64,000 bases of DNA from a virus. Its lineage: Duplodnaviria; Heunggongvirae; Uroviricota; Caudoviricetes. The stretch's first letter is position 1; each line of letters opens with the position of its first letter. The stretch lies in IMG/VR virus record IMGVR_UViG_3300029537_000168, one strand, 5' to 3'. The notes under the pieces are model-generated. The model did not search any database, had not been told where the DNA came from, and saw only the letters and a program-made list of their open reading frames with translations. Below, piece by piece: positions 4,563 to 62,516 of the stretch. Made by a program: the position numbers and the translations under genes.

Positions 4563-5795
4563 TCACGCAACCCTGAAAGGACTGCTGTACCTTATCGGAC
4601 GCAACAACCGCCCGCTACCGGTTATCTGACTGATACAATCAGAATCACCGACTACTTTTCTTAAAATGTTTACTGCTCCATTTACATCGGCATTGATGTA
4701 TCTGCCTGTAGAAGAACGGAACAATCCACGTTTTACTCTCTTTCCGAGATACGACTCATGTTTCCCGATTTCTTCCTTTGCAAGCGCATCACACTTTGAT
4801 GTATAGGATTCTTCATTTTCCACGAACCGTATTCCAGCCATTCTACATTTATATTTCAGATAGGAAGCCAGTCTCGCAAACGGAATCTGCACAAACTTCT
4901 GATTGTTGCGCTTTCCGATGTTTACCGACTGCTTCCAGCCGGTGTTGTAGCCTACAACTAAGTTTCCTATTCTGTTTTCTATAAGATGATTGACTATCAT
5001 GCGGCTGTATTTATGAAATGCGTCCTCAAAGTATCTGTCACGCTTTTCATAAAGATTTTGCATTCGCTTTGTAGCTTTCTTTATTCCCTGCTTGTCCTTT
5101 ATGCTTTGCAGCTTTGCAAGCTGACGGTTAAAGTTCCCGTTGTAAGACTTCAGGAACTTGCCGCTGTAAAGAAAGCTGCCTTTATCCGTTACCATCGTAG
5201 CCAGATTATCGATGCCTAAATCTATTGAAGCGTATTTGGACTTGTCTAAATCTGCATCTTTAACCTCTTGACGGTAAACTATTTCAACTTTCAGTTTCTT
5301 GCCGGAAGGAAGTATCCTTACCTGCTGAAAGTTCTGAATACGTTCCTTGTACTTATCCCATTGAGGAATAGGGATAATAAGGTTTTTGGCAAGACGGATC
5401 ATTCCGTCCTTAATTCTTGCCGACTGATTAGAATAATACAGGTTAAACAGGCTGCCGCGCTTTCTGAAAGAAGGAAGCTGCGGCATTGCCTTGTATTTTG
5501 CAGGATGTGCCTTGAAGTCCTTTATTGCCTTGCAGTATGCTTTCACATTTCTGTCCAGAACCTTCAGGATTTGCTGCGAAACCTGAGCTTTCAGAAGTTT
5601 ATAGTTTATCTCTCCCTCAAGATTAGGCCTAGCTTTCATCAGCTTATCCATGTCGGCATACCACAGCCATTTATTCTCATTCTTGAGAGAATGACGGAAC
5701 AGGTATAAAGCCTGATTGTACAGGTTGTTTGAAACCTTGCACAAGTTTACAAGATGTTCTGTTTGCGGTATGTAAAAGCTATAAATCAAGTTCAT
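4563..5795 (-). CDS. tnpB: TnpB RNA-guided endonuclease (IS200/IS605 OrfB family), no TnpA
   Basis: ASIDLGIDNLAT (RuvC-I), EESYTSKC, INADVNGAVNI (RuvC-III), N-terminal NNLYNQALY. Confidence 0.92.
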   Translation of the reverse strand: MNLIYSFYIPQTEHLVNLCKVSNNLYNQALYLFRHSLKNENKWLWYADMDKLMKARPNLEGEINYKLLKAQVSQQILKVLDRNVKAYCKAIKDFKAHPAKYKAMPQLPSFRKRGSLFNLYYSNQSARIKDGMIRLAKNLIIPIPQWDKYKERIQNFQQVRILPSGKKLKVEIVYRQEVKDADLDKSKYASIDLGIDNLATMVTDKGSFLYSGKFLKSYNGNFNRQLAKLQSIKDKQGIKKATKRMQNLYEKRDRYFEDAFHKYSRMIVNHLIENRIGNLVVGYNTGWKQSVNIGKRNNQKFVQIPFARLASYLKYKCRMAGIRFVENEESYTSKCDALAKEEIGKHESYLGKRVKRGLFRSSTGRYINADVNGAVNILRKVVGDSDCISQITGSGRLLRPIRYSSPFRVA

Positions 5796-5932: not shown

Positions 5933-6820
5933 TCAGGTTCGTGTAATTGAATCAATTACTTTTCTGTTTGCTTTATTAAGCAAATCTGTGCTTATGCTTG
6001 ATAAATATATACGTGTAGTTTCCACATTGTCGTGCCCTAATGCCTGACTGATTATCGGAATGTCAATTCTGTTATCTCTGGCTATGCTTGCCCAACTATG
6101 CCTGGCTACATACATAGTAACAGGTACAGAAAGATTCAATTTTTTGCTTATCTGTTTTAAGTAAACATTTGTTCGTTGCATAGTGCTTTTGGGGGTAGAC
6201 TGTATGGCTTTACTTAGCAGCTCATCTCTGTTTTCCCTTGCATATTTTTTCAAAATCTCACGAGCCTTTGGGTGTACTCCGACAATCAGCAATTGTTCGG
6301 TTTTTCTTCGTTTATATTCTATGGTATTACCTTTCAGATTCTCCTTTTTCAATCCAATCAAATCAACAGGAGCCATACCTCTCAGATAAAAAGAAAGCAT
6401 AAATAAATCCTTTGCTTTTTCTTCTTTATCCGATTGGGGTTCATACTGATAGAATTTACGGAAATCAGACAAGTTTAAAGCTCTATGTACCGTTTTTTCA
6501 TTTCCGGTAAAAACACGCCTAAATGGTTTCTTATCTTTAACCATATCTGCATTTACGGCACGATTGTATATAGCCCTGAATATTCTACAATAAAAAGACT
6601 GGGTGTTCTTCGTGCTACCGTTATTATATCGGATATAATCAGAAAAACGTTCTGCCATATCCGCATTTATATCACATATTCTTACATCTTTACCGTTTGA
6701 AAACTCTTTAAATTTCTTTTTAAAAGACAGATAATTCTGATATAATCTTTCTCTGTTCTGTTTTTTGAAAGAATTTAATATTTCATCCGTGTATTTTATA
6801 AGTGTTATATTGTAGTTCAT
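5933..6820 (-). CDS. tyrosine recombinase/integrase (SAM-like plus catalytic domain, no arm-binding domain)
   Basis: YLRGMAPVDL, KRRKT, YVARHSWA, LGHDNVETTRIY. Confidence 0.9.
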   Translation of the reverse strand: MNYNITLIKYTDEILNSFKKQNRERLYQNYLSFKKKFKEFSNGKDVRICDINADMAERFSDYIRYNNGSTKNTQSFYCRIFRAIYNRAVNADMVKDKKPFRRVFTGNEKTVHRALNLSDFRKFYQYEPQSDKEEKAKDLFMLSFYLRGMAPVDLIGLKKENLKGNTIEYKRRKTEQLLIVGVHPKAREILKKYARENRDELLSKAIQSTPKSTMQRTNVYLKQISKKLNLSVPVTMYVARHSWASIARDNRIDIPIISQALGHDNVETTRIYLSSISTDLLNKANRKVIDSITRT

Positions 6821-7271
6821 TATTTGTTTTATTTTTAGTTAATTTATTATCTTTTTTCCCGTTTACATAACGAATTATTGATCCGTCAATCACGTACCAG
6901 TTTTCCAGGCTGGTTCCAAGTTGTGAAAACTGGGGATAAAGTTCGGGAGCTTTGGTGTATAGCCTTCTGGCATGCTGGCGGCAGAACTCGTCCGTTACGA
7001 AAGGAGGACGGACATCATCAGCCTGACGGCTGATTTGGTCGGCTGCTTCAATATCTCCCCGTTGAAATTCCATCAGACAGTCCCTATATAGCTGGAGCCA
7101 TTCTTTATACGGACGATACATCTGGGTGGCAGGATGGTTGAGCCATCCGCGGCCTTTTCCGTTGATAGCGCGGAGAATCTGTTCAGCTTCTATAATCTGT
7201 TTGTTAAGCCGCCGTTTGTCAAGCTGCCTGGCGGTTTGCAGGCAGCTTGGCGATGGTAGGAATATTTGCAT
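6783..7271 (-). CDS. pyrimidine-dimer DNA glycosylase / endonuclease V-like protein
   Basis: MQIFLP...LDKRRLNKQIIEAEQIL...GWLNHPATQMY. Confidence 0.75.
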   Translation of the reverse strand: MQIFLPSPSCLQTARQLDKRRLNKQIIEAEQILRAINGKGRGWLNHPATQMYRPYKEWLQLYRDCLMEFQRGDIEAADQISRQADDVRPPFVTDEFCRQHARRLYTKAPELYPQFSQLGTSLENWYVIDGSIIRYVNGKKDNKLTKNKTNNELQYNTYKIHG

Positions 7272-7283
7272 GATCACTGTTTT

Positions 7284-7703
7284 TTATCTTCTGTTCTCCT
7301 CTTCAATATTGGCAATCATTTCCTCGTAAACTTGCGGAGTTGTTGCCGGGCCCTCGGTGTCGGTCGTACCGATTTGACGTATCACCACCTCACAACCCAG
7401 GAAGTGAGCCATGCGCAGGAAGTTCACTATGTGCGTGTCTTTTCCACGAGAGATGTCGCGGATAGCTTCGTAGGAAACGCCCGTATCTTTGTCGGCCGTC
7501 ATGAAGTGAACTCCGCAAATCTCCGCACGGGTGAACAGGAATTTACCTATTTCCTTGGCCGAATTAATTGCACTGTCCGGATAACGCGGAGGATTTTTCG
7601 GCAGATTCAGTGCACGATGAATGTTGTAGCGGCGGTATCTTACCACCAGATAGCCTGCAAAAAGCAGGACGCAGATAACTGAGAAAATTGTTGTTCCGTC
7701 CAT
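7284..7703 (-). CDS. membrane-anchored protein with possible HTH
   Basis: N-terminal TM helix; ADKDTGVSYEAIRDISRG HTH-like segment. Confidence 0.55.
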   Translation of the reverse strand: MDGTTIFSVICVLLFAGYLVVRYRRYNIHRALNLPKNPPRYPDSAINSAKEIGKFLFTRAEICGVHFMTADKDTGVSYEAIRDISRGKDTHIVNFLRMAHFLGCEVVIRQIGTTDTEGPATTPQVYEEMIANIEEENRR

Positions 7704-7707
7704 AATT

Positions 7708-7935
7708 TTACTCTATTTCGTTTAAACTTTCAATTGATTCTTCAATGCTTGAGAGAGCTTCTTCCATGTATTCTATGTACTCTTGTATCCGTTCTCCTTT
7801 TTCTGATTCCTGGAAAGACTCAGGGAGGTTATCAAAGGCTTCCTGTTCTTCGTCTTTGAGTTCTTCAAGTTCCTCATATACTTTTCTTAACGACTCTCTT
7901 ACGTCTTCGATTTCTTTTCTTCTTTTCTTATTCAT
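7708..7935 (-). CDS. acidic coiled-coil hypothetical protein
   Basis: MNKKRRKEI...DEEQEAFDNLPESFQESEKGE, common phage pattern. Confidence 0.65.
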   Translation of the reverse strand: MNKKRRKEIEDVRESLRKVYEELEELKDEEQEAFDNLPESFQESEKGERIQEYIEYMEEALSSIEESIESLNEIE

Positions 7936-8055
7936 ACGTTTATAATTTAAAAATGAAGAAGGCCGGCGGAGTATTACTCTCCGTCGGCCTTTGCTCTAAC
8001 TTAAAACTTCGCTTCGCAGCGGTAGGAAATTATGATAAATATTTTTGGATATAAA

Positions 8056-8721
8056 TTAACCATCACCAACGCCACAGTCATAAATTTCAGTAATCTTGCG
8101 CCCTTCATGCGATAAACCCGAAGATAGCAGTTTTTCTTTAACGTATCTACGAAAGCCTTCATTCGACTGTACGCCTGAATACCTCGATGCCATACCGTAA
8201 AAGCGTTTAGGAATAGATATTTTATATCCTAATATTTCCTTCTTTATATAGTCATAATCAAAATGAAAAAACCTTTCATTATCTTTTTCAGTAAAGTAAG
8301 AAAAATCAATTTCTATATTATTTTCCACGCAGAATTTATAAGTTTTTTCGCATTCCTGTTTATATCTTTCATAAGCCAATGCTCTTTGCTTATCCTTGCG
8401 CTCTTGTTCTGCTTTCCATAATTCCTCTCTTTCTCTTTTACACTTCAGCACATACTTTAACACAGTTCCTTTAAGTGATACAAACTCACCATTCATTCCA
8501 CCGCGAGGGGCGTCGTTCCCTATTTCATGGCTTATGCCATGCTCTGTAAGAAGTTTATCCAGTTCTTCGGTATAACTCTTTTTATAATAGTAACCTCCAC
8601 TATACCGGCTCCGTACAGTATATGCTTTCCCATTGCGTAATAAATCATCTACATATTGATTCATTACTACACTTTTCTTCTTGTCTGAAAGCTCTCTTAG
8701 TTTTTCTATTTGTGTTTTCAT
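8056..8721 (-). CDS. hypothetical early protein
   Basis: 221-aa ORF with GNDAPRGG motif. Confidence 0.65.
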   Translation of the reverse strand: MKTQIEKLRELSDKKKSVVMNQYVDDLLRNGKAYTVRSRYSGGYYYKKSYTEELDKLLTEHGISHEIGNDAPRGGMNGEFVSLKGTVLKYVLKCKREREELWKAEQERKDKQRALAYERYKQECEKTYKFCVENNIEIDFSYFTEKDNERFFHFDYDYIKKEILGYKISIPKRFYGMASRYSGVQSNEGFRRYVKEKLLSSGLSHEGRKITEIYDCGVGDG

Positions 8722-8990
8722 TGATTTTACTTTTAAAATAATAATTCAGTTATAAAACAGATATAGGAATTATGATGATTTTTTTTGATATAAGATATAA
8801 ATACTATTTTTGTGCCGTCAAGGGATCGTCCCTTGTGGATTAAAACGAAAATCTACCATCGGTAGGTTTTCAGTTGTGAATTGCTTCACACTTTTAGTAT
8901 CTTAGCGCGGCGTACTCCGTCGCGCTTTTTATTTATTTCTATAAACCAGACTACATCATCATACTTCCTCCTTCGTTTCGAGTGTGCATC

Positions 8991-10055
8991 CTAACCAATC
9001 TTTGTCCTGATTTCTTCTATTATCCGACTGCACTCCTCTTTGGATATTTTCCCTGAATACGTTTCATCTACTTCCTTTTCAAATTCTTCCATGTTTCCAC
9101 GAAAATCTTCACAAGTAATTTCCACTTCATTTTTTTTAGTCCGGTAGGCATGTATGTGGCTAATGAATAGGCCTGAAAGATTGAACCCACAATGGCCCTC
9201 ATTGTCCTTTATCTCGGCATTGCCACGTATCCATGTAGGGCAGTGTACTAATTCGTTGTCATTTATCTCAGCATCATATACGTGGGCATTCTCGCATATT
9301 ATAGTCTCGCCACATACAGAGGAACAGCCATACACCTGTGCATTGCCATATATATCAACATTACCATATATATGAGCATTGCCATATACGTGGGCGTTCT
9401 CATATATACTGACATATCCATATACCCAGGCTTCACCATATATGTTGGCATCGCCATACACTTCAGTATTACAATGTATGTTAGCTCTATCGTAAACTTT
9501 AGCATACCCGTATATTTGAGCTTCTTCATGCACCTCGGCATAGCCATACACCTGAGCATTACCATATATTTGTGCTCCGTCATACACCTCGGCATAGCCA
9601 TACACCTGAGCATTACCATATATTTGTGCTCCGTCATACACATCGGCATTGTCATACACTTGAGCATTACCATATATGTATGCTCCGTCATACACATCGG
9701 CATTGTCATACACTTGAGCATTACCATATATGTATGCTCCGCCATACACATTGGCACAGCCATACACCCGGACGTTCCCATGCAACTTTGCATCACCATA
9801 TACCTCTGCGTCATCATATACCTTTGCGTTATCATATACCTGGGCATTGCCGTACACCTGAGCATCACCGAACACCAGAGCATTGTCATACACCCAGGCA
9901 TCACCTTCATGGCTAAGATTGCTTTCTTTTTCAACATAACCTCCAAAGTCGCCTTCTTTGGCGTACTTAAATGATTTTATGCATTTGATTTGAAACAATT
10001 TTTTCCCACTTGCGAGTTTTATGAATTTGTCAGTCAAAATAAATTTCTTTTCCAT
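8991..10055 (-). CDS. hexapeptide-repeat (left-handed beta-helix) protein
   Basis: Many (V/I)YG(N/D)A(Q/E) repeats; GGYVEKESNLS N-domain; start MEKKFIL. Confidence 0.85.
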   Translation of the reverse strand: MEKKFILTDKFIKLASGKKLFQIKCIKSFKYAKEGDFGGYVEKESNLSHEGDAWVYDNALVFGDAQVYGNAQVYDNAKVYDDAEVYGDAKLHGNVRVYGCANVYGGAYIYGNAQVYDNADVYDGAYIYGNAQVYDNADVYDGAQIYGNAQVYGYAEVYDGAQIYGNAQVYGYAEVHEEAQIYGYAKVYDRANIHCNTEVYGDANIYGEAWVYGYVSIYENAHVYGNAHIYGNVDIYGNAQVYGCSSVCGETIICENAHVYDAEINDNELVHCPTWIRGNAEIKDNEGHCGFNLSGLFISHIHAYRTKKNEVEITCEDFRGNMEEFEKEVDETYSGKISKEECSRIIEEIRTKIG

Positions 10056-10159
10056 ATTCCATACAGTTTTTACCGTGTGTCTCACAATTTAGATTAGAAA
10101 ATGTAGTCCGACTGGGTATTACTCCCAGCCGGACTTAAAACAGCCTTTTTAGTCAGGAA

Positions 10160-10471
10160 TTATTCACTAACTAAATTCTGGTAGAAGAAATAATCAAGCA
10201 CTATTACCAGCACTTTTGCTTCTTTGTCGTCGTACCAGTCATCGAAGTCGGCTTTAATTCCGGAATTTGCAAGAATAGTTTCATCATATTCTTCTTCGTC
10301 CATTTCGCTGAAGTCGCATTTTATTTCATCAGGAAGATTGTCAAGATCTATATCCAGCCCTTCTATACTGTCAGTGTGGATTCTATGATTTTTTCCTCTA
10401 TAGACATAAATTTCTACATCTGCACAATTAGACGCTAATTCTTTCAGGTAATTTTTTTCGTAAGTTATCAT
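10160..10471 (-). CDS. acidic hypothetical early protein
   Basis: 103 aa, D/E-rich, leader present. Confidence 0.65.
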   Translation of the reverse strand: MITYEKNYLKELASNCADVEIYVYRGKNHRIHTDSIEGLDIDLDNLPDEIKCDFSEMDEEEYDETILANSGIKADFDDWYDDKEAKVLVIVLDYFFYQNLVSE

Positions 10472-10600
10472 AATTCAACTATTTAATTGGTTAATATTCT
10501 ATTTCATATACTAAAAGTGACCGAAGGTTCATTACTTTACCTTCGGTCTTTTAACTAACTTAAAATTCCGCTTCACAGCGGCAGGAAATTATGATTATTA

Positions 10601-10840
10601 TCATTTCAGAAAACATAATCCGCAACGGTATTCTTTCTTATCTTCCGGAACTTCATATTCTAGCAGGTATTCCGCAAAGAAATCTTTCGCTTCCTCTTCA
10701 GTTCCGTTTACATCTTCACAAGCGCTGTCGTCTAAAATTATTTTCCCATCACATACAAGACGGTAGTATCCGCTTATGGACTGTTCGCATTCAAAATTCT
10801 TTCCTGTTGCTTTTACTACATCCTCAAAACTAGCTTTCAT
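10601..10840 (-). CDS. hypothetical early protein
   Basis: 79 aa, leader present. Confidence 0.6.
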   Translation of the reverse strand: MKASFEDVVKATGKNFECEQSISGYYRLVCDGKIILDDSACEDVNGTEEEAKDFFAEYLLEYEVPEDKKEYRCGLCFLK

Positions 10841-11102
10841 AACTCTAAACAGTTTTTCCCGTGTGCCTCACGATTTGATTAAACATTCGTAGTCCGAAAG
10901 AGTATCACCTCCGCCGGACTTGTTCTAACTTAAAACTAACTTGTGGAATTATTTTGTTAACGGTTTATATGTATTTCTCATAATTCTAAAAGTTTGACGT
11001 TGTAAATATAGTTATTTTTCTCAAGTAGCCGAATGAAAATCACTTTTCATTCGGCTGATTTACTAACTTAAAAACTAACGCTTCACAGCGTGACCGATGG
11101 AA

Positions 11103-11309
11103 TTATATTTCCAAATTATCTAATGCTTCTTTTTCTTCTTTTGACAGAAGACAAACGAAGTCATCGTTACTATAATAACCTTGATCTTCGTCCGGTTCGT
11201 CAAAACATCTTTTAGATGAATACATAACACTGCGTAAAGCATTATACTCGTCTTTTGTAAGACCTAATATGCTTATTGTTCCGTTTTTATTGAATCTTGT
11301 TCTGCTCAT
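11103..11309 (-). CDS. hypothetical early protein
   Basis: MSRTRFNK start defined by conserved leader. Confidence 0.6.
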   Translation of the reverse strand: MSRTRFNKNGTISILGLTKDEYNALRSVMYSSKRCFDEPDEDQGYYSNDDFVCLLSKEEKEALDNLEI

Positions 11310-11376
11310 AATTCTTTTTATTTTATAGTTACACATCGGTTCCGGATCAAGATGCAAACCTGAATCCGGAAGTAGG

Positions 11377-11838
11377 TTAGATGCGCATCATTTCAAGACA
11401 TTGTTTCATAGGTATAAGTTCGTCACCAAAGCATTGTTGCAGGAAATTGTAAGACAGCTTAAAATTTCCTTTTACGCTTCTTATTTTAAATATCTTACCT
11501 TCACATAATGACCTGAGATTTTCATCGTCATTAAGCATCCAGAATAGTTTTTCTAAGGAGTATTTTGGAAGCATCCCAGATATTTGCAATTTACCTACAG
11601 GGTGAACTTCTTTAGGAACATCCATTACTGTTACTTCGGCAGCAAAAATAGGAAAATCAATTATACAATCTTGTAAATCGTTTAGATTGTTATCGTCACC
11701 TTCATATAGGAAAGCATATTTTCTGAATCTGCTCCATATCCCGGGTTTAAGAATACTTTTGGATATTTCTACTGGTTCACCTTTCATGAATGTTTCACCA
11801 TTAGCTACTTTCTCGATTAAATTCTTTTCTACTTTCAT
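11377..11838 (-). CDS. hypothetical early protein
   Basis: 153 aa, conserved leader. Confidence 0.65.
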   Translation of the reverse strand: MKVEKNLIEKVANGETFMKGEPVEISKSILKPGIWSRFRKYAFLYEGDDNNLNDLQDCIIDFPIFAAEVTVMDVPKEVHPVGKLQISGMLPKYSLEKLFWMLNDDENLRSLCEGKIFKIRSVKGNFKLSYNFLQQCFGDELIPMKQCLEMMRI

Positions 11839-11902
11839 AATTCCAAAATTTTAGTTAGACAATGGTTCTCGTACCAATCTTTTAAATCGGTACGAAATTT
11901 TC

Positions 11903-12202
11903 TTAGCGAGCTTTTTCTATTTCCTGGTTGTAATTGTTTTGCAGAAAATACATATCCTCATTATAAAGTACATTCAGATAATTCAGTATTTTCTCCTTAC
12001 TTCTTACTTTCTTTATCTTTGATATGCTACCCATTCCATTGCTGTCAGTTCTTACATCTCCATTTTTAAATATTAAAAGAATACATCCTGTACATCCTTC
12101 CCAATCTGTTATGATTTCTCCTACTTGGAATTTACCATATTCTTTTACTTCGCTTTTATTGGCATAGTGACGAAAATAATGTTTCTCAATATTTATTACC
12201 AT
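11903..12202 (-). CDS. hypothetical early protein
   Basis: 99 aa, conserved leader. Confidence 0.65.
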   Translation of the reverse strand: MVINIEKHYFRHYANKSEVKEYGKFQVGEIITDWEGCTGCILLIFKNGDVRTDSNGMGSISKIKKVRSKEKILNYLNVLYNEDMYFLQNNYNQEIEKAR

Positions 12203-12273
12203 AATTCCTTGTTTTTAAGTTAGACGATAGTACCGGGCTAAGATCGCAGACTTAGACCGGTTAGTAGCTAATT

Positions 12274-12534
12274 TCATTTACGAGGTCTTATTTTTCTGAA
12301 CTTACCTTCATAATCAGCATTTACATGTCCTGATTGAGAAAGGGTTATATTCCTACTTCTTCGATACATTTTATATTCTCCCCACCAATATGCGTTATAT
12401 TTTTTACGCATATACTTGAGCAGATTTATAACTTCGTCAGGTTTTTCTCGTGAGTATTCAAACCATTCTGAAATGCCACCTTTCCCATCATTATCAAATA
12501 CAACTACTAATAGACCTGATTTTTGATTTCCCAT
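12274..12534 (-). CDS. hypothetical early protein
   Basis: 86 aa, conserved leader. Confidence 0.65.
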   Translation of the reverse strand: MGNQKSGLLVVVFDNDGKGGISEWFEYSREKPDEVINLLKYMRKKYNAYWWGEYKMYRRSRNITLSQSGHVNADYEGKFRKIRPRK

Positions 12535-12596
12535 AATTCTTTATTTTAAGTTAGACTATGTATCCGGAGGGAGTATCACTCTCCATCCGGATTTTC

Positions 12597-12788
12597 TTAG
12601 CTGGGAAAATCATCTTCCGTGAAATTAATTCCTGAATATGCCTCTTGTATTACTTTGTCAGAAATAATACTATCTGCTCTGGCAAGTTCATCATAAGAAG
12701 TGCCTTCTCCCGTTTCTTCATTTTGTTGTATCAGATAACTCTGCTTGAGTTCTATCAACTGCTCTCTGTTTAATTCTGATATATACAT
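12597..12788 (-). CDS. hypothetical early protein
   Basis: 63 aa, ELNREQLIELKQSY. Confidence 0.6.
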   Translation of the reverse strand: MYISELNREQLIELKQSYLIQQNEETGEGTSYDELARADSIISDKVIQEAYSGINFTEDDFPS

Positions 12789-12800
12789 GACTATAGGTTT

Positions 12801-13061
12801 TTATTTTTCAAAAAGAAATAATTCATTATTACCAGGTATATATACCTTACCGTTTTCTAAGCATAAGAATAAATCTGACTGACTATTTCCTGATGCTTTA
12901 TAAAACTCGTCGTAATTATATTTTTCTCCTTTGCTCCAGGAATATGTGCTTATACCTAAATCTCTATCAGAACTTATTCTTCTGCATGCTTCCTCGAAAC
13001 ACATGTTTTTCTTTCCTATTGGACAGAAAGTATAACCATTGTATTCAAAATCTTTTTCCAT
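12801..13061 (-). CDS. hypothetical early protein
   Basis: 86 aa, conserved leader. Confidence 0.65.
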   Translation of the reverse strand: MEKDFEYNGYTFCPIGKKNMCFEEACRRISSDRDLGISTYSWSKGEKYNYDEFYKASGNSQSDLFLCLENGKVYIPGNNELFLFEK

Positions 13062-13127
13062 AATTCAAATTTTTAAAAGTTAGACAATAAGTAAGGCAGT
13101 CGGAATCACTTCCGGCTGCCCTCTACA

Positions 13128-14252
13128 TTACAGAGAGAAAGCTGCTCTCAGTTCCGGCTCGCGTTTCTTTGAGAAAACCCAACCAGCACCGCATTTCAAC
13201 TTACCGTTGAATCGTCCGCCAAGCTCTTTGAGCTTCGCTACATAGTCACGGGTGTTACCGATGATGGCCACGGCCTTTTCGCTGTAATCTACAAGCTGCA
13301 AATCAGATTTATTTTCTACGGCTTTTGCTGTAGAACTTACAGGTTTTTCCTCCGGTTTCTGATAAAAATCTATATCACTCAGATAACCCCGTAAACAACT
13401 TGAAGCAGAAGTGTACTGGTTAGATTCCACAAACTCTGAATAAGACTTTGGGAGAAACTGATTTGTTTCAGTTATTCCGATAGCCTCGGGATGTTTGGCA
13501 TAGAATTTTTCTTTTGTTTCATTCCAGATTTTATCAGAATAGCTGCGTTCCAAATCCGGCATATAACCGATTCCACCATATAAGGAAGTAAACTCGCTTT
13601 TGATGTGTTCTTCAATGTCCTCGTATCCGTTAAATGTCGTATCTACAAACTTAGAACAGATTTTAGCAACCATCTTTTCGGTCGGACCGTCCGTCCATCT
13701 TACGTTGTAGCTGTTTGAACCATTCTTTTTGGAATAGAACTTTATACCCGGAAAAGCACGCTTCAGAAGCACAAGCATGTTTTGTTTGGCCGTCTTGTCG
13801 TCATAGCTATTACACTCAGTCAGTATCGAGCCATACTCTTTTCGGAGCTGATCGGTACGATTTTGGCTGGCTATACGTTTGTTTTTCTCCAGACGTTCAT
13901 TCCATGCCTGCTGTACTTCGCACTGGTGAACCAGTTTGGCTATTTCCTGCTCGGGCATACGGTAGTCGGGCTCTTTGTCGTCCCAATAGTAACCAATACC
14001 GAACTTCTTTGATAACGGCTGGTCGTCCTGGCCTACTCTCCAATATGCGAAACGGTGCCATCCTCCAATTTCGGCCATTTGCTGCCGTCCGTGAATGTCA
14101 GGAGCAGAAGTCACGATAAACTTACCGCTTTCGCTTCCTCCATAACCTAAGAATCCATAAACGCGCTGGCCTACTTCGAGAACTTTTTTACCGATTTCTA
14201 CCATCTGAAAACCATTTGACCAATCCATTCTGTACATTTTTCCTGATTCCAT
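13128..14252 (-). CDS. LPD29 (large polyvalent protein domain)-containing protein
   Basis: LKRAFPGIKFYSK...VRWTDGPT; C-terminal DYSEKAVAIIG..LKELGGRFN..GWVF domain. Confidence 0.75.
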   Translation of the reverse strand: MESGKMYRMDWSNGFQMVEIGKKVLEVGQRVYGFLGYGGSESGKFIVTSAPDIHGRQQMAEIGGWHRFAYWRVGQDDQPLSKKFGIGYYWDDKEPDYRMPEQEIAKLVHQCEVQQAWNERLEKNKRIASQNRTDQLRKEYGSILTECNSYDDKTAKQNMLVLLKRAFPGIKFYSKKNGSNSYNVRWTDGPTEKMVAKICSKFVDTTFNGYEDIEEHIKSEFTSLYGGIGYMPDLERSYSDKIWNETKEKFYAKHPEAIGITETNQFLPKSYSEFVESNQYTSASSCLRGYLSDIDFYQKPEEKPVSSTAKAVENKSDLQLVDYSEKAVAIIGNTRDYVAKLKELGGRFNGKLKCGAGWVFSKKREPELRAAFSL

Positions 14253-14314
14253 AATTCTATAAATTTTAAGTTAGACAATGACCCCGGCAGATTCTTAAAA
14301 ACCTGCCGGAATGT

Positions 14315-14857
14315 TTAAGCTACACAGAAGTAGAAATCACCCTGATGGCGGTATCCGCTGGTAAGCAATGTCCTGGAGTATGCTTCGTAGTCGAAATACT
14401 GACCGAACTCTGTTTGAAGTTCTTCAGGCCATTTCATTTCCGCCATATAGGTGGCAAACGCTTCCTCAGAATCAAATTGCCCTGCGTATTTATCTCTGAA
14501 CTTTTCTACGAGCTCTTCACCGTCTTTGATATAGGAATAATCCACAAAGTACATATCAAGAAACGTAAAAAATGCTTCTGTCTCTGTGTCATCCATATCT
14601 TTTGCACACTGAATGATACCAAATATTAGCGGGTCGATATAGCTTTCGTTTATCATACCGTCTGGTATGTTATTATAGTCCTGGTACATAAACTCTGGCT
14701 CTTCCTCGTCGCTATGCAATTCCTTGCAGGCTTCCATAAACTTATCTTTCGATTCATAGTCGGCCAATTCCATCCATGCGCCAGCCAGCGAACCTTCATT
14801 ATATTTCTTATATGTACCTACATATACACTTGCTCTGAGTAATTTTGATTTTTCCAT
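14315..14857 (-). CDS. ardA: antirestriction protein ArdA
   Basis: VYVGTYKKYNEGSLAGAWMEL, EFMYQDY, YFDYEAYSR; highly acidic. Confidence 0.9.
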   Translation of the reverse strand: MEKSKLLRASVYVGTYKKYNEGSLAGAWMELADYESKDKFMEACKELHSDEEEPEFMYQDYNNIPDGMINESYIDPLIFGIIQCAKDMDDTETEAFFTFLDMYFVDYSYIKDGEELVEKFRDKYAGQFDSEEAFATYMAEMKWPEELQTEFGQYFDYEAYSRTLLTSGYRHQGDFYFCVA

Positions 14858-14920
14858 AATTCCTTTGTTTTATAGTTAGACATGGCAGCCGATACAGTTA
14901 CAACGCTGTACCGGCTAATA

Positions 14921-15289
14921 CTATGAAGCTTTGTAGCCATCCTCTGTCTCAATTATCACACCCTGACTGATTGCATAGCTTACAGCCTGCGATGTAACAA
15001 TACCGAAAACGTCACAATCTTTTTTGATGTCATCCATGTACATGTCATTCCAATCTACCTGAACGTCATCATCTTTCACCCATACGTCAATCCATTCGCC
15101 CCACCAACCGTCAGGAAGCTGTACATACACCGCACAACTTCCCGGACCGTCTATCTCGATCTTTGTGGCTACGGCTTCATTCTTGCATATTCTTCTTACT
15201 ATTTTCTTATGATCGGGACGATGATTCATTTGTGAATACATAACTTTTGTAATTCTTTCCCAATCCTGGGTTGTCAATGATTTTGTCAT
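14921..15289 (-). CDS. hypothetical early protein
   Basis: 122 aa, conserved leader. Confidence 0.65.
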   Translation of the reverse strand: MTKSLTTQDWERITKVMYSQMNHRPDHKKIVRRICKNEAVATKIEIDGPGSCAVYVQLPDGWWGEWIDVWVKDDDVQVDWNDMYMDDIKKDCDVFGIVTSQAVSYAISQGVIIETEDGYKAS

Positions 15290-15353
15290 AATTCCTATAG
15301 TTTTAAGTTAGTAATCGTGTCTGGAAGTACCGTAAAGTACCTCCAGCATGGAA

Positions 15354-15569
15354 TTAATACCCCATAGCGTCGTAGTACGATTTGTTTTTTACGTACTCTT
15401 TTGCTATTTCGTAGTCACTGCAATCTTCGCCGAGCTTTGCGCTAATACTTTCGTATGCGCTTTTTGGCATTACATAGATAACCTGTTCGCTCCAGTCGGA
15501 ACGACCAGCGAAACACAAAGCCACGAATAAAAACACGCAGCACAGAATGACTTTCATTTTCTTTTTCAT
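15354..15569 (-). CDS. small exported/membrane protein
   Basis: MKKKMKVILCCVFLFVALCFAG signal-like N-terminus. Confidence 0.6.
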   Translation of the reverse strand: MKKKMKVILCCVFLFVALCFAGRSDWSEQVIYVMPKSAYESISAKLGEDCSDYEIAKEYVKNKSYYDAMGY

Positions 15570-15630
15570 AACTCAAACTATTTAAGAAGTTTGCAGGCCG
15601 TACACTGGCAAAGGTGAACGGCCTGATAGG

Positions 15631-15837
15631 TCATAGTCTGATAGCATTCTGGCAAGCAAAATCTGTAGATAGAATATGTAAAACTTGCATATCTGATATT
15701 TCTTTATATCGCGCATTCCGATTTGAATAGTCCATACAAACTGCTTTTGCGTGATTTAGAATGTTTGTTACGCATAGATTAATATTTTTACCATTCCATG
15801 TGTTACATGTTACCAGATAAAATTTATTTTTTACCAT
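15631..15837 (-). CDS. hypothetical early protein flanked by direct repeats
   Basis: 68 aa, conserved leader. Confidence 0.55.
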   Translation of the reverse strand: MVKNKFYLVTCNTWNGKNINLCVTNILNHAKAVCMDYSNRNARYKEISDMQVLHILSTDFACQNAIRL

Positions 15838-15900
15838 AATTCAAAATAATTTTAAGTTGTGATTGCAGGCCGTACACCGGTAAAGGTGAACGGCCTGATT

Positions 15901-16206
15901 TTAATCATTAAGCATAGAAGCTATTGCTTTCTGCTCTTCCTGGAATTTATTCCATTCTCTTTCTTCTTCCGCTTTCCGATTCATTCGATATGAGCTGTAT
16001 CTTTGTTTTTCCAGCACGTCCATACTTTCATATTCACGTACAAACTCCCGGTGAAACTTCAATGTATCTGAAACTTCATAGCATACACCATCTTTGGCAA
16101 GACGATAATTACATTCAGATTCATAAGCTTTTTCAAACTTTGTAGCACATGAAGTAAAAACAGAAGCACACAATACGATTGATACGGATAAGATGATAGT
16201 TTTCAT
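15901..16206 (-). CDS. putative lipoprotein
   Basis: MKTIILSVSIVLCASVFTSC lipobox. Confidence 0.65.
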   Translation of the reverse strand: MKTIILSVSIVLCASVFTSCATKFEKAYESECNYRLAKDGVCYEVSDTLKFHREFVREYESMDVLEKQRYSSYRMNRKAEEEREWNKFQEEQKAIASMLND

Positions 16207-16224
16207 AATTCAAAAAGTTTATAG

Positions 16225-16910
16225 TTATACATACAAGAAGTGCCATGCACCCGAAAGCGCATAGCACTACATAGGTAGGGGTTTTCCGTACCACCCCCGA
16301 AGCTGGTTTTCGTTGCGTTGACGCATACCCGCCTATATGCACCATGATACACTATTTGCATAGCGTTCACGGATACACTTTTCGCATAGACGACCTTTGC
16401 AGGCGCACCGCCATACAGACACACGTGTCCGCATGGTACGTTGATTCCATAGGCCCGGATAACTCCCAGCCCGTTCCATACATACGCTAAAACAGTATGG
16501 ATCTTTTCCGGTTAACTACTCCGGCATACACCCAAGATTGAACAGGGCATAGCACACCCGTACATGAATCCATACGGACACGGTGCACCCTGACTGATCG
16601 TTCAACACGTTGCAGGACTCACCGCACCCATACGGGTACAGTTATGCCATAGAATTATGAATTATGATTTTCGCGGCCCTGGATACCTTCAGACTCTTGG
16701 CCTGGATGACTATAGGCGCATGGACACACCTATCCGCACAACACATAGTAAACCCGTGTTGTGTTTCAAGACGGCCCACAGTGCAGCCTTATGCAGCTGG
16801 AGTGTATAGTCCCAAATACTACATATAGATACCCTTTTCGCCGGCCGTATGAGATAGAATATATTTTTGTGGGTGTCCGGGAATCGGACCCGGACGAATA
16901 CCATACACCC
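16225..16910 (-). ncRNA. candidate long non-coding RNA, UAUG-rich
   Basis: No convincing ORF; about 18 CATA on plus strand; tRNA-minihelix-like 5' part. Confidence 0.4.
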
Positions 16911-16916
16911 TAAATA

Positions 16917-17456
16917 TTAAGCCGCGTCTACAATACGTTCTGCTATTTGTAGCAACATATCTTCAGAAGCGTCTAAGAATTCTATTTTTAAAGCTTGCAA
17001 TGTAGCGTTTATCTTAGATTCACGTTTTTCTGCTTTCTTTGTTTCTTTCTTTGCCTCTTTCTCTTTTGCTGCTTTTTCCAGTTTTTCCTTTGCCTGATTT
17101 ATTTGTAGCAAACTTTCTAAGCTTGCAAAAAAATCATCTTCATCGAATCTTATTGGAACGTATTCGAAATATTTTTTCCCTATCTGGACTACTTTTAATT
17201 CGTTCCCGTCCAATGTTTCAATATCTGATAATCTTTTTAATTTACAGAAAACAGGCAAACCGTCTCCAAGCTCGAAGCTTAGCAACATAGAAAGATCAAC
17301 TTTCTTTATACCGTAAAAATCTAAGTATCTTTTGATTTTTTCCTGATCACGGTTTTTGTTTATTGTGTTCATAACGCCAAACGGTGATCTATTAAGCTTT
17401 TTAGTTTCTTTTTTAGCTTCGCGTCTCAATACTGATTTAGATACATTTGTTTTCAT
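16917..17456 (-). CDS. Lys-rich first gene of early operon
   Basis: 179 aa, conserved leader, repeated EAKKETKK. Confidence 0.7.
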   Translation of the reverse strand: MKTNVSKSVLRREAKKETKKLNRSPFGVMNTINKNRDQEKIKRYLDFYGIKKVDLSMLLSFELGDGLPVFCKLKRLSDIETLDGNELKVVQIGKKYFEYVPIRFDEDDFFASLESLLQINQAKEKLEKAAKEKEAKKETKKAEKRESKINATLQALKIEFLDASEDMLLQIAERIVDAA

Positions 17457-17939
17457 AATTCCATAATTTTAAGTTAGTAATATAGTAACGGGTATCGACT
17501 ATGCACGACCCGGGAGAACATAGTTCACCCGTTAGGCTACCTTTCGGCTCCTTTCCCGTTATCAATATATTACTATCTCATACGGATTATTTGTTACAGA
17601 CTAACCGCGCCGCGTGTACTTTGTTCCGTTTGCTTTCGTGTGTGGCTTGCAAACTATGCAAGCCGGGAAAGTATCAAACTATGATAGTGAACAGGATCAC
17701 CAGCCGGAACGCGGATCACGTTTATACGGTTTTTTTTCAAAGAACGTTTTTTCTTTCTGGATATTTTCGGGAACGGAAAGAAAAACGTATCTTTGTTTTG
17801 CGACAAACAGAAGAAAGTTTTATCTTTCTTTTTCCCGCGGGTATTCCTGTAATACCCGCTTTTTATACCTGGAAAGAACGTTTTCCGGGCTTTGGGAAGC
17901 CCCGGAGGCTTCTTGTAATCTTTGTTTTCGATTACACTA

Positions 17940-17969
17940 CAAAGGTACATAATATTCTCTATTGTGCAA
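17940..17969 (-). promoter_or_regulatory. Bacteroidota primary-sigma promoter of early operon
   Basis: TTG-N19-TACCTTTG. Confidence 0.65.
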
Positions 17970-18056
17970 TAGGTGTACACATTTTTCTCTATTATTTTAA
18001 CCGTTATTTAATATTCGGTCCAAAATGAAAGGTTTATTCACATTTTCGCGCGCTTT

Positions 18057-18092
18057 CTGGTGGCGTTCCTCACCATGTAGGAACGCCACCAG
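18057..18092. repeat. perfect 14-8-14 inverted repeat
   Basis: CTGGTGGCGTTCCT-caccatgt-AGGAACGCCACCAG. Confidence 0.95.
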
Positions 18093-18260
18093 CAGCCACC
18101 AGCGGACATCAGCAGCCACCAGCGGACATCAGCAGCCACCAGCGGACATCAGCAGCCACCAGCGGACAGCAGCAGCCACCAGCGGACAGCAGCAGCCACC
18201 AGCGGACACCAGCAGCCACCAGCGGACATCAGCAGCCACCAGCGGACAGCAGCAGCCACC
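18091..18260. repeat. 20-bp tandem repeat, 8.5 units
   Basis: AGCAGCCACCAGCGGACA(T/G/C)C units. Confidence 0.97.
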
Positions 18261-18403
18261 ACCCGGGCATATATCACCGACGGACGGGGCCCCAGAGGGA
18301 CACGTCCCACGTAGCGAGGCGCGGGGTTTTCATCGTGAATCGGGCAAAAATCTTTTGTTTCAACTCCAAATTATCAGATTGTTATTCAGTTTTGAAGGGA
18401 ATA

Positions 18404-18440
18404 CAAAAAAAGGCAACCGGATTCCGTCCGATTGCCTTTA
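18404..18440 (-). terminator. intrinsic terminator
   Basis: AAAGGCAATCGGA..TCCGGTTGCC hairpin followed by T7. Confidence 0.6.
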
Positions 18441-18505
18441 TATACTTTATGTATTGTCCTTTCTACATACGTTTCCTTTTAGTATCTTTGCTAAAAATAA
18501 AAAAT

Positions 18506-25517: not shown

Positions 25518-27344
25518 TTAAGCCGACATCGGCATACCCACACCTATCATGCGGCCCGATCCGTAATAACGCACACCGATTACCAGCGTGTCGAATGCGT
25601 CGCTCAGGTCGGTACGTGTACTCAATTCTGCCTCGATGTCGTCCACTTCCTTCGATACGCGGTTCTTTTCCTGACTCTTGTCTTTCTCAAAACCGTTGCG
25701 TCCTTCCTTCACACGCGCGTTCTCCATGGAGGCAATCAGATACTCGTTGTTCTCCTTGTTGATGCGAAGGAACGGGCGCTGCGTGCCGGCAAAGCATCCG
25801 TTCAGGAACTCGTACTTCTTGTTGTGGCTCATGGGCCTTCCCATGGGTACTTCGATGACGTTCCATCCGTGGCTGCGAAGCACTTTCTTTACGATGTTGT
25901 AGAAACGGGTTTCTTCGTGGCGCTCGCTGGCGTAGGCGGCTCCCTGCTTGGCGGTGTCGTCGTAGTAGAAAATCACGTCGCGGCAGGTCAGGCGGTGCGG
26001 CTCGTAATACTTGCAGAACATCTTGCAAAGTCCCTCGATACGGGTGTTCTTTACGTTGGTCATGCTGTTGAGTATGCGCAGCACGCCGGTGTTGCTCCGG
26101 CTTTCGGTCTGCCCTATCACCAGACAGTTGATGTGTGCGTTGTAGTCGAAGGCGATGCGCAGCGGTTCTCCGGGCTTTATGTCGGTGTCCAGACAGCAGT
26201 CCTGTGCCTTGGAAAGCTCGTTCAGGTCGATGCTTTCCGACTCCACACGCAGGGTACGCCCGCCGCTGTATATCTGCGTAATGGTGCGTTTCTTATATTT
26301 CTGTGCGGCTTCCAGCTGCTCTTCGTCGTTACTGAGATAGCAGTGCACGTCAGGGTCGAAGTTGGCATAATAGCCATCGTTTATTTCTTCCTTCTCGACG
26401 TTACGGATGGAGATGTCGAACATGGTGGGGGTAAGTTCCTTCTGCATGGTGCGGATGAACTGTTCGCCCAGAATGTCGATGTTTTCTATGCTGGAAAAGG
26501 AGAAGTAGATGCTGGCCTGGCAGCGCAGCTTATTAAGTTCACGCTGGTATTTGGGGGACTGCACGATTTCCGGGCAGATCTGTGCCTCACGTATCATCTC
26601 CGCAATCTTCCGGTTTATTTCCGGTGTCTGCTCTTCACGGCGCTTCCGGAGCCATGCCTGACGCTTTGTAAGCGGTGCATCGCTTACAAAGAATATACTC
26701 TTGTAATACGGATTCAGGTTTTCATCAAATCCGGGATGATTGGTGTTGATACCACGAAGCGTAGGAAGAATTTCGGCCTTAATCAGTCCCTCCGGCATAA
26801 AACGACACTCGTCGCCGATAATGGAGCACGAGTCCATACCGTTGGCAGCAGCCTTCACTCCGGTAGAAATCATGTAGTACACGAATCCGTTCCAGAAGTG
26901 GATGCAGTTTTCCCACACCTTCGGCTTTACGATGGGTTCCTTGAAATTGCATTTGGCCGGAGCGTGTCCACGAAAGAAATGGACTCCCTCTTTCAGTCCG
27001 GTCATTCGCTCCAGCGAGTAAAGCGTTTTAGGTACGGTCTTTGTGAAAAGCTGCTTGATACTGTTACCTAAGAAAAGTCCGGTTCCGCGCGGCATGGACT
27101 GGATGCAACCGGCCATTTCGGGCGTAATCAGTCCGTCGGTCTTACCTGTACCACGACCTGCTTCTACGGTGGTATTCCGGCATCGGTAGTTGTACACCGC
27201 ACGTTGGGCCGGATTCATGTAGATGTAGTTGGCCGCAGTTTCCTGCTCCTCCGCTTCCTGCACGCCCGACAATGCCGAGGCGTGACGCTGTGCCCGTCGG
27301 AGTGATTCCTCGCGGGCAGATTCATATTCGTTTCTCCGTGCCAT
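25518..27344 (-). CDS. terL: terminase large subunit
   Basis: Q motif (NPAQ), Walker A EAGRGTGKT, Walker B IIGDE, nuclease AFDYN and DLSDAFD. Confidence 0.85.
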   Translation of the reverse strand: MARRNEYESAREESLRRAQRHASALSGVQEAEEQETAANYIYMNPAQRAVYNYRCRNTTVEAGRGTGKTDGLITPEMAGCIQSMPRGTGLFLGNSIKQLFTKTVPKTLYSLERMTGLKEGVHFFRGHAPAKCNFKEPIVKPKVWENCIHFWNGFVYYMISTGVKAAANGMDSCSIIGDECRFMPEGLIKAEILPTLRGINTNHPGFDENLNPYYKSIFFVSDAPLTKRQAWLRKRREEQTPEINRKIAEMIREAQICPEIVQSPKYQRELNKLRCQASIYFSFSSIENIDILGEQFIRTMQKELTPTMFDISIRNVEKEEINDGYYANFDPDVHCYLSNDEEQLEAAQKYKKRTITQIYSGGRTLRVESESIDLNELSKAQDCCLDTDIKPGEPLRIAFDYNAHINCLVIGQTESRSNTGVLRILNSMTNVKNTRIEGLCKMFCKYYEPHRLTCRDVIFYYDDTAKQGAAYASERHEETRFYNIVKKVLRSHGWNVIEVPMGRPMSHNKKYEFLNGCFAGTQRPFLRINKENNEYLIASMENARVKEGRNGFEKDKSQEKNRVSKEVDDIEAELSTRTDLSDAFDTLVIGVRYYGSGRMIGVGMPMSA

Positions 27345-28083: not shown

Positions 28084-28791
28084 TCATTGCAAAATCTCCC
28101 AGTCTTCTGCGAATACATCCGCTATGGAAGGATTCCATGAGTCAGCACGACCGGTATTTTCATTGTAAATAAGGCACTGGCACGTGTAATCAATAAATCC
28201 TTTTCCTTTCAGGATGATTTCTTTGGCGGATTGTGGGAGTGATTGCATTTTCGGTATTACATCGTTTCCAATGTGTGAAGGAACCTGCTTGACGACAAAC
28301 ATACCTTTACCATTCCATCCTTTTCTGCGGATACAAAGGCCAAACTTTAAAGCTTCTATTGCTTCACCAAAACTGTATAAGGTATTACACTTCGTTTTGC
28401 TACCGTTTGCATATTCAATACGGTTATGTAAAGTCCCAAGATAGCTTCCCATAGCTTCTCTTTGAAGGTGCATAAGGAAAGCTGGATAATCTTCTTTGAT
28501 TACCTCACGGAATTTTTCTGAATCTACGAATGAGCTACACTTTTCATACTTTTCTGATAGCTCTTCGTCTTCAATCATCATTCTGTCAATGAAAGTTTCA
28601 ACACATTTGTACCTTTCCTCAAATTCTGCTTTTGGAATAAAACTTACGCATCCATTGGAATCTACCACCTTGTATCCTTCCACTCTCGGTTCCATGGTTT
28701 TGGGGGTTGCATCCGTAGGAAGGTAAATATTACCACCTTTCAGAATTGCTTCTGTAGCCTGTACTTCTTCTGTTCTAATAAATTTCTTCAT
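28084..28791 (-). CDS. three-domain protein ending in DUF2829/Tad2-like domain
   Basis: SFGEAIEALK..RRKGWNGKGMFV..WNPSIADVFAEDW. Confidence 0.75.
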   Translation of the reverse strand: MKKFIRTEEVQATEAILKGGNIYLPTDATPKTMEPRVEGYKVVDSNGCVSFIPKAEFEERYKCVETFIDRMMIEDEELSEKYEKCSSFVDSEKFREVIKEDYPAFLMHLQREAMGSYLGTLHNRIEYANGSKTKCNTLYSFGEAIEALKFGLCIRRKGWNGKGMFVVKQVPSHIGNDVIPKMQSLPQSAKEIILKGKGFIDYTCQCLIYNENTGRADSWNPSIADVFAEDWEILQ

Positions 28792-54392: not shown

Positions 54393-54406
54393 GTTTTATT
54401 TCTTCG

Positions 54407-56536: not shown

Positions 56537-56543
56537 CGTGTCG

Positions 56544-62414: not shown

Positions 62415-62434
62415 GTCTTTGTGTTTGTTTTCCT

Positions 62435-62476
62435 CAAAGTTAGGCAGCCGGAAGGTGGAAATGAAGGACAAAAAAA
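62435..62476 (-). promoter_or_regulatory. late-type promoter of TMP operon
   Basis: TTTTTGTCCTTCA-N19-TAACTTTG. Confidence 0.7.
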
Positions 62477-62516
62477 CGGTGTCCGTTAGTTCAACGAACA
62501 CCGTTTTAAAACTATT

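Follow-up and report, generated by a model that had tools for sequence, protein, structure and literature searches.

The early genes of an uncultured tailed phage share a two-part translation start region (the leader), and inverted copies of that leader, which we call anti-leaders, recur in the same gene array. We analyzed these copies in a 64,000-nucleotide (nt) stretch of DNA, the window, taken from IMG/VR virus record IMGVR_UViG_3300029537_000168 (Caudoviricetes), and in its relatives. The inverted copies are a separate, conserved class of long-spacer elements that keep to one strand and lie at gene 3′ ends, and copies in both orientations are the seams along which gene cassettes have been exchanged between related phages. 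Both the long-spacer class and the role at mosaic joints had escaped an earlier interpretation made from the letters of the window (the sequence-only reading). The interpretation that fits best, which we hold tentatively, is that the inverted copies would act as antisense RNA elements against early-gene start regions.

Nearly all genes of the window are on the minus strand. The forward leader unit consists of a GC hairpin, 6 to 10 nt ending in (c)attgt, the 11-mer CTAACTTAAAA (the first half), 3 to 6 variable nt, and GGAATTATG (the second half), whose ATG is the start codon. A composite pattern search yielded nine such copies on the minus strand between 11837 and 17477, all of which run directly into ATG, together with one unrelated match at 2035-2070. 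Degenerate versions precede three more starts, at 16206, 15569 and 11309. The exact first-half 11-mer occurs nine times in the 64 kb (four times on the plus strand and five on the minus strand), always within 7996-17477; about 0.03 occurrences are expected by chance. With up to two mismatches, it is not enriched in the window (35 observed versus 29.6 expected). The genes behind forward leaders include those for ArdA (14318-14857) and an LPD29-domain protein (13131-14252); the majority have no family assignment.

The same search located five reverse complements of the forward unit on the plus strand (7996-11106; Table 1), which we classified by spacer length and by the small hairpin between the halves: type I has a spacer of 16 to 21 nt with the hairpin, type II one of 9 nt, type III one of 23 to 25 nt with the hairpin, and type IV is degenerate. 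Each copy lies just 3′ of a minus-strand stop codon and just 5′ of a GC hairpin. On the sense strand, the forward unit thus reads stop, hairpin, leader, ATG, and the inverted unit reads stop, anti-leader, hairpin, another leader, ATG. All four plus-strand occurrences of GGAATTAT and both of GGAAATTAT in the window fall within 8025-11106. In three of the five copies, the halves are separated by a small hairpin, CGCT-TCGC-AGCG or (C/A)CGCT-TCAC-AGCG(G/T), whose loop on the minus strand is GCGA or GTGA. The sequence-only reading had listed five inverted leaders, three of them with a tiny GNRA hairpin between the halves. All five were recovered, with two positions corrected (10130-10163 for 10134-10162, and 11063-11106 for 11065-11105), and the three hairpins are present (8010-8021, 10568-10581 and 11078-11091). 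It had also remarked that the TAA of an upstream gene can form part of the TAATTCC arm; this holds for the stops at 10160, 10949, 11103 and 15354, of which the one at 10949 ends merely a 10-codon mini open reading frame (ORF). Its partial copies fared less evenly: the one at 8750-8774 is real and has an exact second half, and those at 15350-15356 and 16647-16668 exist but are only 7-mers.

Complete relatives of the phage in IMG/VR are 101 to 115 kb long. In all five of them, the exact first-half 11-mer is limited to one stretch of 10 to 12 kb, with one orientation proximal and the other distal. Set side by side, six genomes have 9 to 15 forward copies followed by 2 to 5 inverted ones, and the two are never interleaved. 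A divergent relative, G008, whose terminase is 82% identical, retains the inverted block and has two extra forward-type leaders beyond it. In all, seven related genomes have the arrangement in common. Across IMG/VR, the forward pattern matches 103 loci and the small-hairpin variant matches 24. We counted element contexts over all fetched loci, which are not independent, the phages being close kin. The gene strand holds all 109 distinct short-spacer contexts, of which 108 continue with G and so run into ATG. The 85 long-spacer contexts behave differently: 64 lie on the opposite strand and 1 on the same strand, and the remaining 20 have no forward reference copy in their own locus, at least some of these 20 being chance matches in unrelated contigs. 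Spacers in the inverted copies measure 9 to 33 nt, versus 3 to 6 nt in working leaders. The longest ORF that ends near the element stops between −28 and +1 nt from it in all 88 contexts, and 36 of these use the element's own TAA. The adjoining GTRAT-loop hairpin keeps the sense of the genes in 39 of 39 cases (17 next to forward copies and 22 next to inverted copies), which rules out the idea that the inverted copies are flipped cassettes. The copies pointed out by the sequence-only reading are real and conserved, and they occupy, in the sense direction of the array, places like those of 3′ untranslated regions.

Conservation within the elements is uneven. Among 14 distinct type II units, ATAATTCC and GTTAG are invariant and the TTTTAAGTTAG half differs at a single column, in four units; by contrast, many columns differ in the spacer, in the hairpin stem and in the linker that leads to it. 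A hand count from the alignment with G008 gave 26 of 27 identical anti-leader positions, next to a 6-nt linker that has nearly all changed. The small spacer hairpin covaries, its outer pair being C-G, A-T, T-A or G-C among 15 variants. Because four different Watson-Crick outer pairs occur in 15 variants, the small hairpin is, judged by its sequence variation, a selected structure.

To locate mosaic joints, we defined homology blocks by BLAST of the window against six relatives and counted a block end if it lay within 40 nt of a copy. By this measure, 48 of 70 block ends are at a copy, and just 19% of the region is that close to one. A 2.5-kb segment, 8036-10531, is flanked by two type I copies and holds the genes 8056-8721, 8991-10055 and 10160-10471 as well as a small plus-strand unit. 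It is missing from two relatives (L129 and L130), which have a single type I copy at the spot, and in a third (L131) about 870 nt of other DNA stands in its place. Type I copies are joined to at least three different hairpin flanks and at least five different upstream genes, and loose ends of metatranscriptome contigs coincide with copy positions. We conclude that the copies, in both orientations, are seams of gene-cassette exchange. They likely arose by mirror duplication of the leader across the neighboring hairpin; this is suggested by one long imperfect palindrome, built of the type III copy, the hairpin next to it and the mini ORF's degenerate leader (minimum free energy [MFE], −37.8 kcal/mol; z = −4.4).

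These observations raise the alternative that recombination linkage, or a by-product of mutation, is all there is to the copies, template switching at the GC hairpin having mirrored the leader and the copies having been kept as patches of homology for cassette exchange, with no function as RNA. In addition to the block ends, the lost or swapped segment and the varied flanks of type I, this would account for the mirrored distance and linker (hairpin-N6-10-CTAAC versus GTTAG-N5-7-hairpin, with AACAAG resembling the complement of cATTGT) and for the completeness of the palindrome that the type III copy and the mini-ORF leader build around their hairpin. A T4-type precedent is described in passages of PMC2839356. 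However, linkers alone leave unexplained why the halves are invariant around a variable spacer, why the spacer hairpin covaries, why none of the 109 short-spacer contexts is inverted, and why a relative at about 80% nucleotide identity has preserved the layout. Inverted repeats, moreover, lend themselves poorly to a productive swap of cassettes with the forward block. We consider it rather unlikely that linkage is the whole explanation.

The antisense interpretation starts from the fact that each anti-leader is the reverse complement of a two-part start region common to 9 to 15 early genes. In the mechanism we propose, the anti-leaders would be transcribed within the sense RNA of the same minus-strand array. 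The small spacer hairpin of types I and III would bring the two halves side by side, and both halves would then pair with the common leaders, covering the AUG. Early messages, some of them anti-defense, would thereby be shut off or destabilized once transcription gets to the far end of the array. We cofolded every anti-leader unit with all nine leader units in turn and took the gain as the energy of the heterodimer minus that of the monomers, with reversed sequences as controls. The mean gain was −16.0 and −13.8 kcal/mol for the two type I copies, −14.5 for type II, −8.7 for type III and −5.0 for type IV, compared with about −3 to −5 for the reversed controls. In an example of the predicted duplex, the small hairpin and both GC hairpins are kept and both halves are paired, for type I including the AUG; the model thus matches the suggestion of the sequence-only reading that the hairpin loops out while both halves pair with a target leader. 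Both halves are unpaired in the centroid fold of 7930-8062 on the minus strand.

The sequence-only reading had also proposed translational coupling in cis, in which the TAATTCC arm, located at the upstream stop or close to it, pairs with the GAAUUAUG start of the next gene across the hairpin and a terminating ribosome opens that start. MFE folds do close the intergenic region by a TAATTCC-start stem in three to four of five cases, the stem is present in the centroid for 10465-10610 and 10835-10955, and the arm contains the stop codon in three of the five window copies and in 36 of 88 contexts. These stems did not, however, exceed those of shuffled stop windows: the expected numbers of stop-by-start pairs (2.7, 6.8, 6.8, 0.0 and 4.2) were equaled or exceeded by 30, 15, 12, 40 and 10 of 40 shuffles, respectively, so that coupling in cis found no statistical support. 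Intergenic regions of the forward block, which have no arm, score alike. In the window, cis folding offers the conserved second half, TTTTAAGTTAG, a partner only in the type III unit, namely a degenerate leader remnant just past the hairpin; the other four units offer none. Type I copies occur with several different downstream genes. In trans, four of the five copies gained −8.7 to −16.0 kcal/mol, against about −3.3 for reversed sequences. We hold coupling in cis to be improbable.

The nine forward copies coincide with none of the minus-strand TAnnTTTG sites in 7-19 kb, i.e., the leader contains no Bacteroides-type −33/−7 promoter by that consensus. A pattern scan flagged no terminator-like site on the minus strand inside the forward block (11.8-15.9 kb). 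As far as such scans go, a promoterless leader and an absence of flagged minus-strand terminators fit a single long sense transcript, without showing one. A T7-type RNA polymerase (PF00940) was not found in four related records, a weak negative given that control genomes were silent too. The epsilon enhancer of T7 is a precedent for pairing of a leader with 16S rRNA. We rejected such pairing for the stand-in host Mediterranea massiliensis, in which the core finds a 7-mer only and 69% of shuffled cores pair as well or better. A search for host or prophage copies of the forward pattern gave six loci in 596 Gb, single copy each, with about four expected by chance, and is uninformative.

Alternatively, the inverted copies could be real start sites on the plus strand, or antisense promoters, from which antisense transcripts or small plus-strand ORFs would be expressed against the distal genes. 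Read on the plus strand, hairpin, first half and second half follow one another in the same order as in forward units; 38 of 85 long-spacer contexts continue with G, giving ATG; an 80-amino-acid plus-strand ORF begins at 10591 (10591-10833); and a Bacteroides-type plus-strand promoter match is near, at about 8776-8812. However, an ATG is missing from three of the five window copies and from 47 of 85 contexts, the spacers are well outside the range of working leaders (9 to 33 versus 3 to 6 nt), and the hairpin loop is wrongly oriented for a plus-strand unit. ORF 10591-10833 overlaps a minus-strand ORF, and variable sites favor the minus frame (codon positions 7/5/11 versus 6/10/4). The motif itself fits neither the Bacteroides −33/−7 consensus nor a phage polymerase found by the PF00940 search described above. 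From their sequence, the inverted copies are unlikely to be plus-strand gene starts, and start sites and antisense promoters taken together strike us as quite improbable.

Two further alternatives concern what the halves and the small hairpin might bind. The halves could be DNA sites for a phage or host regulator, their orientation carrying little weight. The exact 11-mers are limited to one region in six of six genomes (the five complete relatives and the window), and types II and III repeat CTAAC at a distance of one helical turn. However, forward copies are fused to ATG in 108 of 109 contexts, which points to an expression signal on RNA, and a half spacing of 3 to 33 nt with a covarying hairpin is easier to reconcile with single-stranded nucleic acid than with a duplex site. 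The analysis yielded no candidate for a binding protein, and we regard DNA sites as very improbable. The second alternative is a nut-like or tandem-terminator module, in which a protein would bind the small GNRA hairpin in the manner of boxB or the hairpin, together with the U run of the second half, would be a weak terminator modulating read-through of the downstream hairpin. The small hairpin may resemble boxB of λ and P22. The pattern scan flagged CCGCTGTGAAGCGG with AATTTTAAGT and ACGCTGTGAAGCGT with TAGTTTTTAA as terminator-like on the minus strand, and the GC hairpin after the copy at 7996 is followed by TTCTTCATTTTT. Types II and IV, however, have no small hairpin, the U run is short and begins 2 nt past a 5-bp stem, and complementarity to the leader is left unexplained; neither an N-like protein nor boxA was found, and neither was searched for. 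We regard a module of this kind as very improbable.

Several findings weigh against the antisense interpretation itself. The degenerate type IV copy gains no more than its own control (−5.0 versus −4.9 kcal/mol), and the extra base of type I (GGAAATTAT, compared with GGAATTAT in leaders) makes a bulge in the duplex. After an inverted duplication, complementarity is trivial; a favorable trans energy is expected from it and so is not independent evidence of function. A role as recombination joint could by itself explain why the copies persist. Conservation is in part descent and search ascertainment, the relatives found all being close (terminase identity of at least 82%, except for fragments): with the terminase or a 374-amino-acid protein as query, the only other matches were two short contigs at 62 to 63% and two at 27%. 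Pair counts for the small hairpin are nearly equal on the two strands (68 versus 67 of 75 cells paired). In G008, forward copies mostly have TGAATTATG as their second half, whereas GGAATTAT is retained in the inverted copies, and the two do not covary there; in this single divergent genome, an ATTAAAA change is common to forward and type III copies, and no such change is shared in the second half. Finally, phage RNA is represented by unstranded contigs, with tail genes covered equally. A search of sequencing runs gave eight recorded as RNA, none of which matched half of the query words. Four wastewater metatranscriptome runs from one study (X1 to X4) cover the region in fragments, and a tail-gene control (52000-63500) has similar depth; this coverage neither supports nor counts against transcription of the array as proposed.

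A possible companion of the anti-leaders lies farther upstream in the array. Between the genes 16917-17456 and 15901-16206 is a 710-nt stretch (16207-16916, minus strand) that is more conserved than its neighbors, being 87 to 99.7% identical among relatives. It is non-coding, because the plus-strand ORFs there change frame in G008; the ORFs 16657-16809 and 16664-16828 were rejected as coding since the frame switches inside them. The stretch folds better than 20 of 20 shuffles (z = −4.95) and has no match in Rfam, and we consider it a candidate large structured RNA. It contains a tandem anti-start motif (Table 1) that is predicted to be unpaired (0.83, versus 0.36 for the entire RNA) and is identical in six of six relatives. 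Together, the multitarget anti-leaders at the 3′ ends of the last genes and this tandem motif might form a built-in delay line that silences 9 to 15 early anti-defense and host-takeover genes together, the same elements doubling as joints for cassette exchange. As a whole, we hold this scheme to be doubtful. If true, it would be an undescribed way to time early-gene shutoff through one masked common start region, and ArdA is among the early genes here whose start, judged by its leader, would be masked. Gut Bacteroidales, as hosts of tailed phages, translate without classical Shine-Dalgarno pairing. One start region on 9 to 15 genes, with conserved complements at the end of the array, makes a one-to-many antisense model directly testable, and the leader/anti-leader pair would be a portable part for engineering.

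Table 1. Coordinates of leaders, inverted copies and associated hairpins in the window
Feature	Position	Strand	Description
Nine forward leaders (proposed targets)	11837-11858, 12201-12223, 12533-12554, 13060-13083, 14251-14274, 14856-14879, 15288-15311, 15836-15860, 17455-17477	−	Composite pattern search
Anti-leader, type I	7996-8033	−	Minus-strand reading: ATAATTTCC, small hairpin CGCT-GCGA-AGCG (8010-8021), TTTTAAGTTAG; 20 nt past stop of gene 8056-8721
GC hairpin past first type I	7961-7989	−	Gene-sense loop AGTAATA; then TTCTTCATTTTT on minus strand, terminator-like
Anti-leader, type IV	10130-10163	−	First half degenerate (CGGACTTAAAA), no small hairpin; TAA 10160-10162 is stop of gene 10160-10471
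GC hairpin past type IV	10105-10135	−	Flagged terminator-like on minus strand
Anti-leader, type I (second)	10555-10592	−	Small hairpin CCGCT-GTGA-AGCGG (10568-10581); starts 9 nt past TGA of 79-amino-acid gene 10601-10840
GC hairpin past second type I	10519-10548	−	Sequence and fold
Anti-leader, type II	10925-10952	−	9-nt spacer holding second CTAAC; TAA 10949-10951 ends 10-codon mini ORF 10949-10981
GC hairpin past type II	10891-10920	−	Gene-sense loop GTGATA
Anti-leader, type III	11063-11106	−	25-nt spacer, small hairpin ACGCT-GTGA-AGCGT (11078-11091); TAA 11103-11105 is stop of gene 11103-11309
GC hairpin past type III	11028-11055	−	With degenerate mini-ORF leader, closes long imperfect palindrome (MFE, −37.8 kcal/mol; z = −4.4)
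Partial inverted copy	8750-8774	−	Exact GGAATTATG on plus strand, first half degenerate; 30 nt upstream of start of gene 8056-8721
TAATTCC 7-mer only	15350-15356	−	At stop of gene 15354-15569; upstream of hairpin and forward leader
Tandem CAUAAUU-CAUAAUUC (two CATAATT(C) 7-mers)	16647-16668	−	Complementary to GAAUUAUG start regions, including AUG

The window covers most of a siphovirus-type phage, with the terminase at 25518-27344, a head protease at 33358-34932 and the tape measure protein at 56544-62525. A tyrosine integrase (5933-6820) adjoins an IS605-type TnpB gene (4563-5795, minus strand). Within the array, the mini ORF 10949-10981 (minus strand) has a degenerate forward leader on one side and the type II anti-leader on the other, an "empty cassette"; G008 has an 84-amino-acid gene there (locus L250, 10048-10302). 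The swappable 2.5-kb cassette has the sole full Bacteroides-type promoter match in 7-19 kb, on the plus strand (TTTG-N19-TATTTTTG, with the −7 box at 8805-8812), in the gap 8722-8990. About 110 nt past this promoter is a strong terminator (8904-8926 and a T run), and 8776-8935 (plus strand) is a candidate small RNA on these signals; one relative (L127) aligns across it at 97% (block 7282-9106). Also in the cassette, gene 8991-10055 (minus strand) encodes a beta-solenoid repeat protein (YdcK-type, bactofilin or hexapeptide-like) with strong PHROG matches. Its DNA is made of repeated 54-bp units, and metatranscriptome contigs show length variants there. A second common leader type (CGTGAGRCACACGGKAAAAACTGT..ATG, with a small hairpin) occurs on the minus strand at 10056-10100 and 10841-10885, upstream of the genes 8991-10055 and 10601-10840, and is found again in relatives, G008 among them. 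About 450 nt (within 17480-18030) precede the first leader. This region has a plus-strand ORF without a family match (17501-18028); two hairpins, 17837-17859 and 17893-17915, look terminator-like on the plus strand, and 17947 may be a −7 box on the minus strand. The early transcript may start within 17480-18030. Elsewhere on the minus strand, 28087-28791 encodes a Tad2-like (anti-Thoeris) plus crAss001_48-like protein, and 50845-51474 encodes a small protein with a sigma-70 region 4 or GerE-type helix-turn-helix.

We compared the elements with known systems of repeated cassettes and of start-site occlusion. Integron cassettes were rejected as a parallel: the window integrase scores 27.5 bits against TIGR02249, whose cutoff is 265. 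As attC sites, GTCTAAC fits RYYYAAC on just one hairpin side, GTTAGAG, GTTAGTT and GTTAGAA miss GTTRRRY, and the hairpins are 27 to 31 nt long. The two 11-mers, searched for in literature text, turned up in 14 papers, none of which by title or abstract deals with phages or bacterial regulation. In the window, all Rfam families stayed below their gathering scores, and none of five subthreshold matches in 7000-18500 was to c4, of which Rfam contains a model.

Occlusion of starts by a neighboring complement is known from the T4 genes e, soc, 49 and I-TevI and from the fold-back of hok, where the sense RNA hides the start until processing or transcription from another promoter. That pairing is local, one to one and in cis, whereas here cis pairing is no better than in shuffles and the complement fits a family of starts kilobases away. 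Trans-acting small RNAs of Bacteroides, such as GibS, pair at translation starts in a host group without Hfq. Their seed adjoins a terminator hairpin, which resembles the layout of anti-leader followed by GC hairpin; in contrast, they are stand-alone genes with their own promoters, and no promoter was found for the anti-leaders in the Bacteroides-type scan of 7-19 kb.

The closest parallels are two phage systems. The promoter-early stem-loops (PeSLs) of T4-type phages, as presented in passages of PMC2839356, are repeated composite intergenic cassettes, a stem-loop with a conserved expression signal, that lie between small nonessential early genes and are shuffled as modules. The elements described here are likewise repeated intergenic stem-loops with a conserved motif in a variable early region, with breakpoints and a cassette insertion or deletion at the repeats. 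They differ in that PeSLs carry a sigma-70-like promoter and the motif here, with no recognizable host promoter, is fused to ATG, and inverted copies 3′ of genes are not mentioned in those passages. The finding that both orientations serve as cassette seams would extend the T4-type idea of a mobile regulatory cassette to another phage group. In P1 and P7, the part of PMC8198154 that deals with the immI operon places c4, icd and ant1/2 in one operon, in which ant is fully repressed only with the C4 antisense RNA present. By sequence and promoter, the elements are members of neither the c4 nor the PeSL family. They resemble c4, as described there, in being a candidate antisense regulator within the operon of its own targets that would act on translation, and complementarity to target translation starts is present in both halves, with a cofold gain of −8.7 to −16.0 kcal/mol in four of the five copies. 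They differ from it in position and reach: c4 lies upstream and addresses one message, whereas the elements of this phage lie at the far end of the array and would address 9 to 15 starts.

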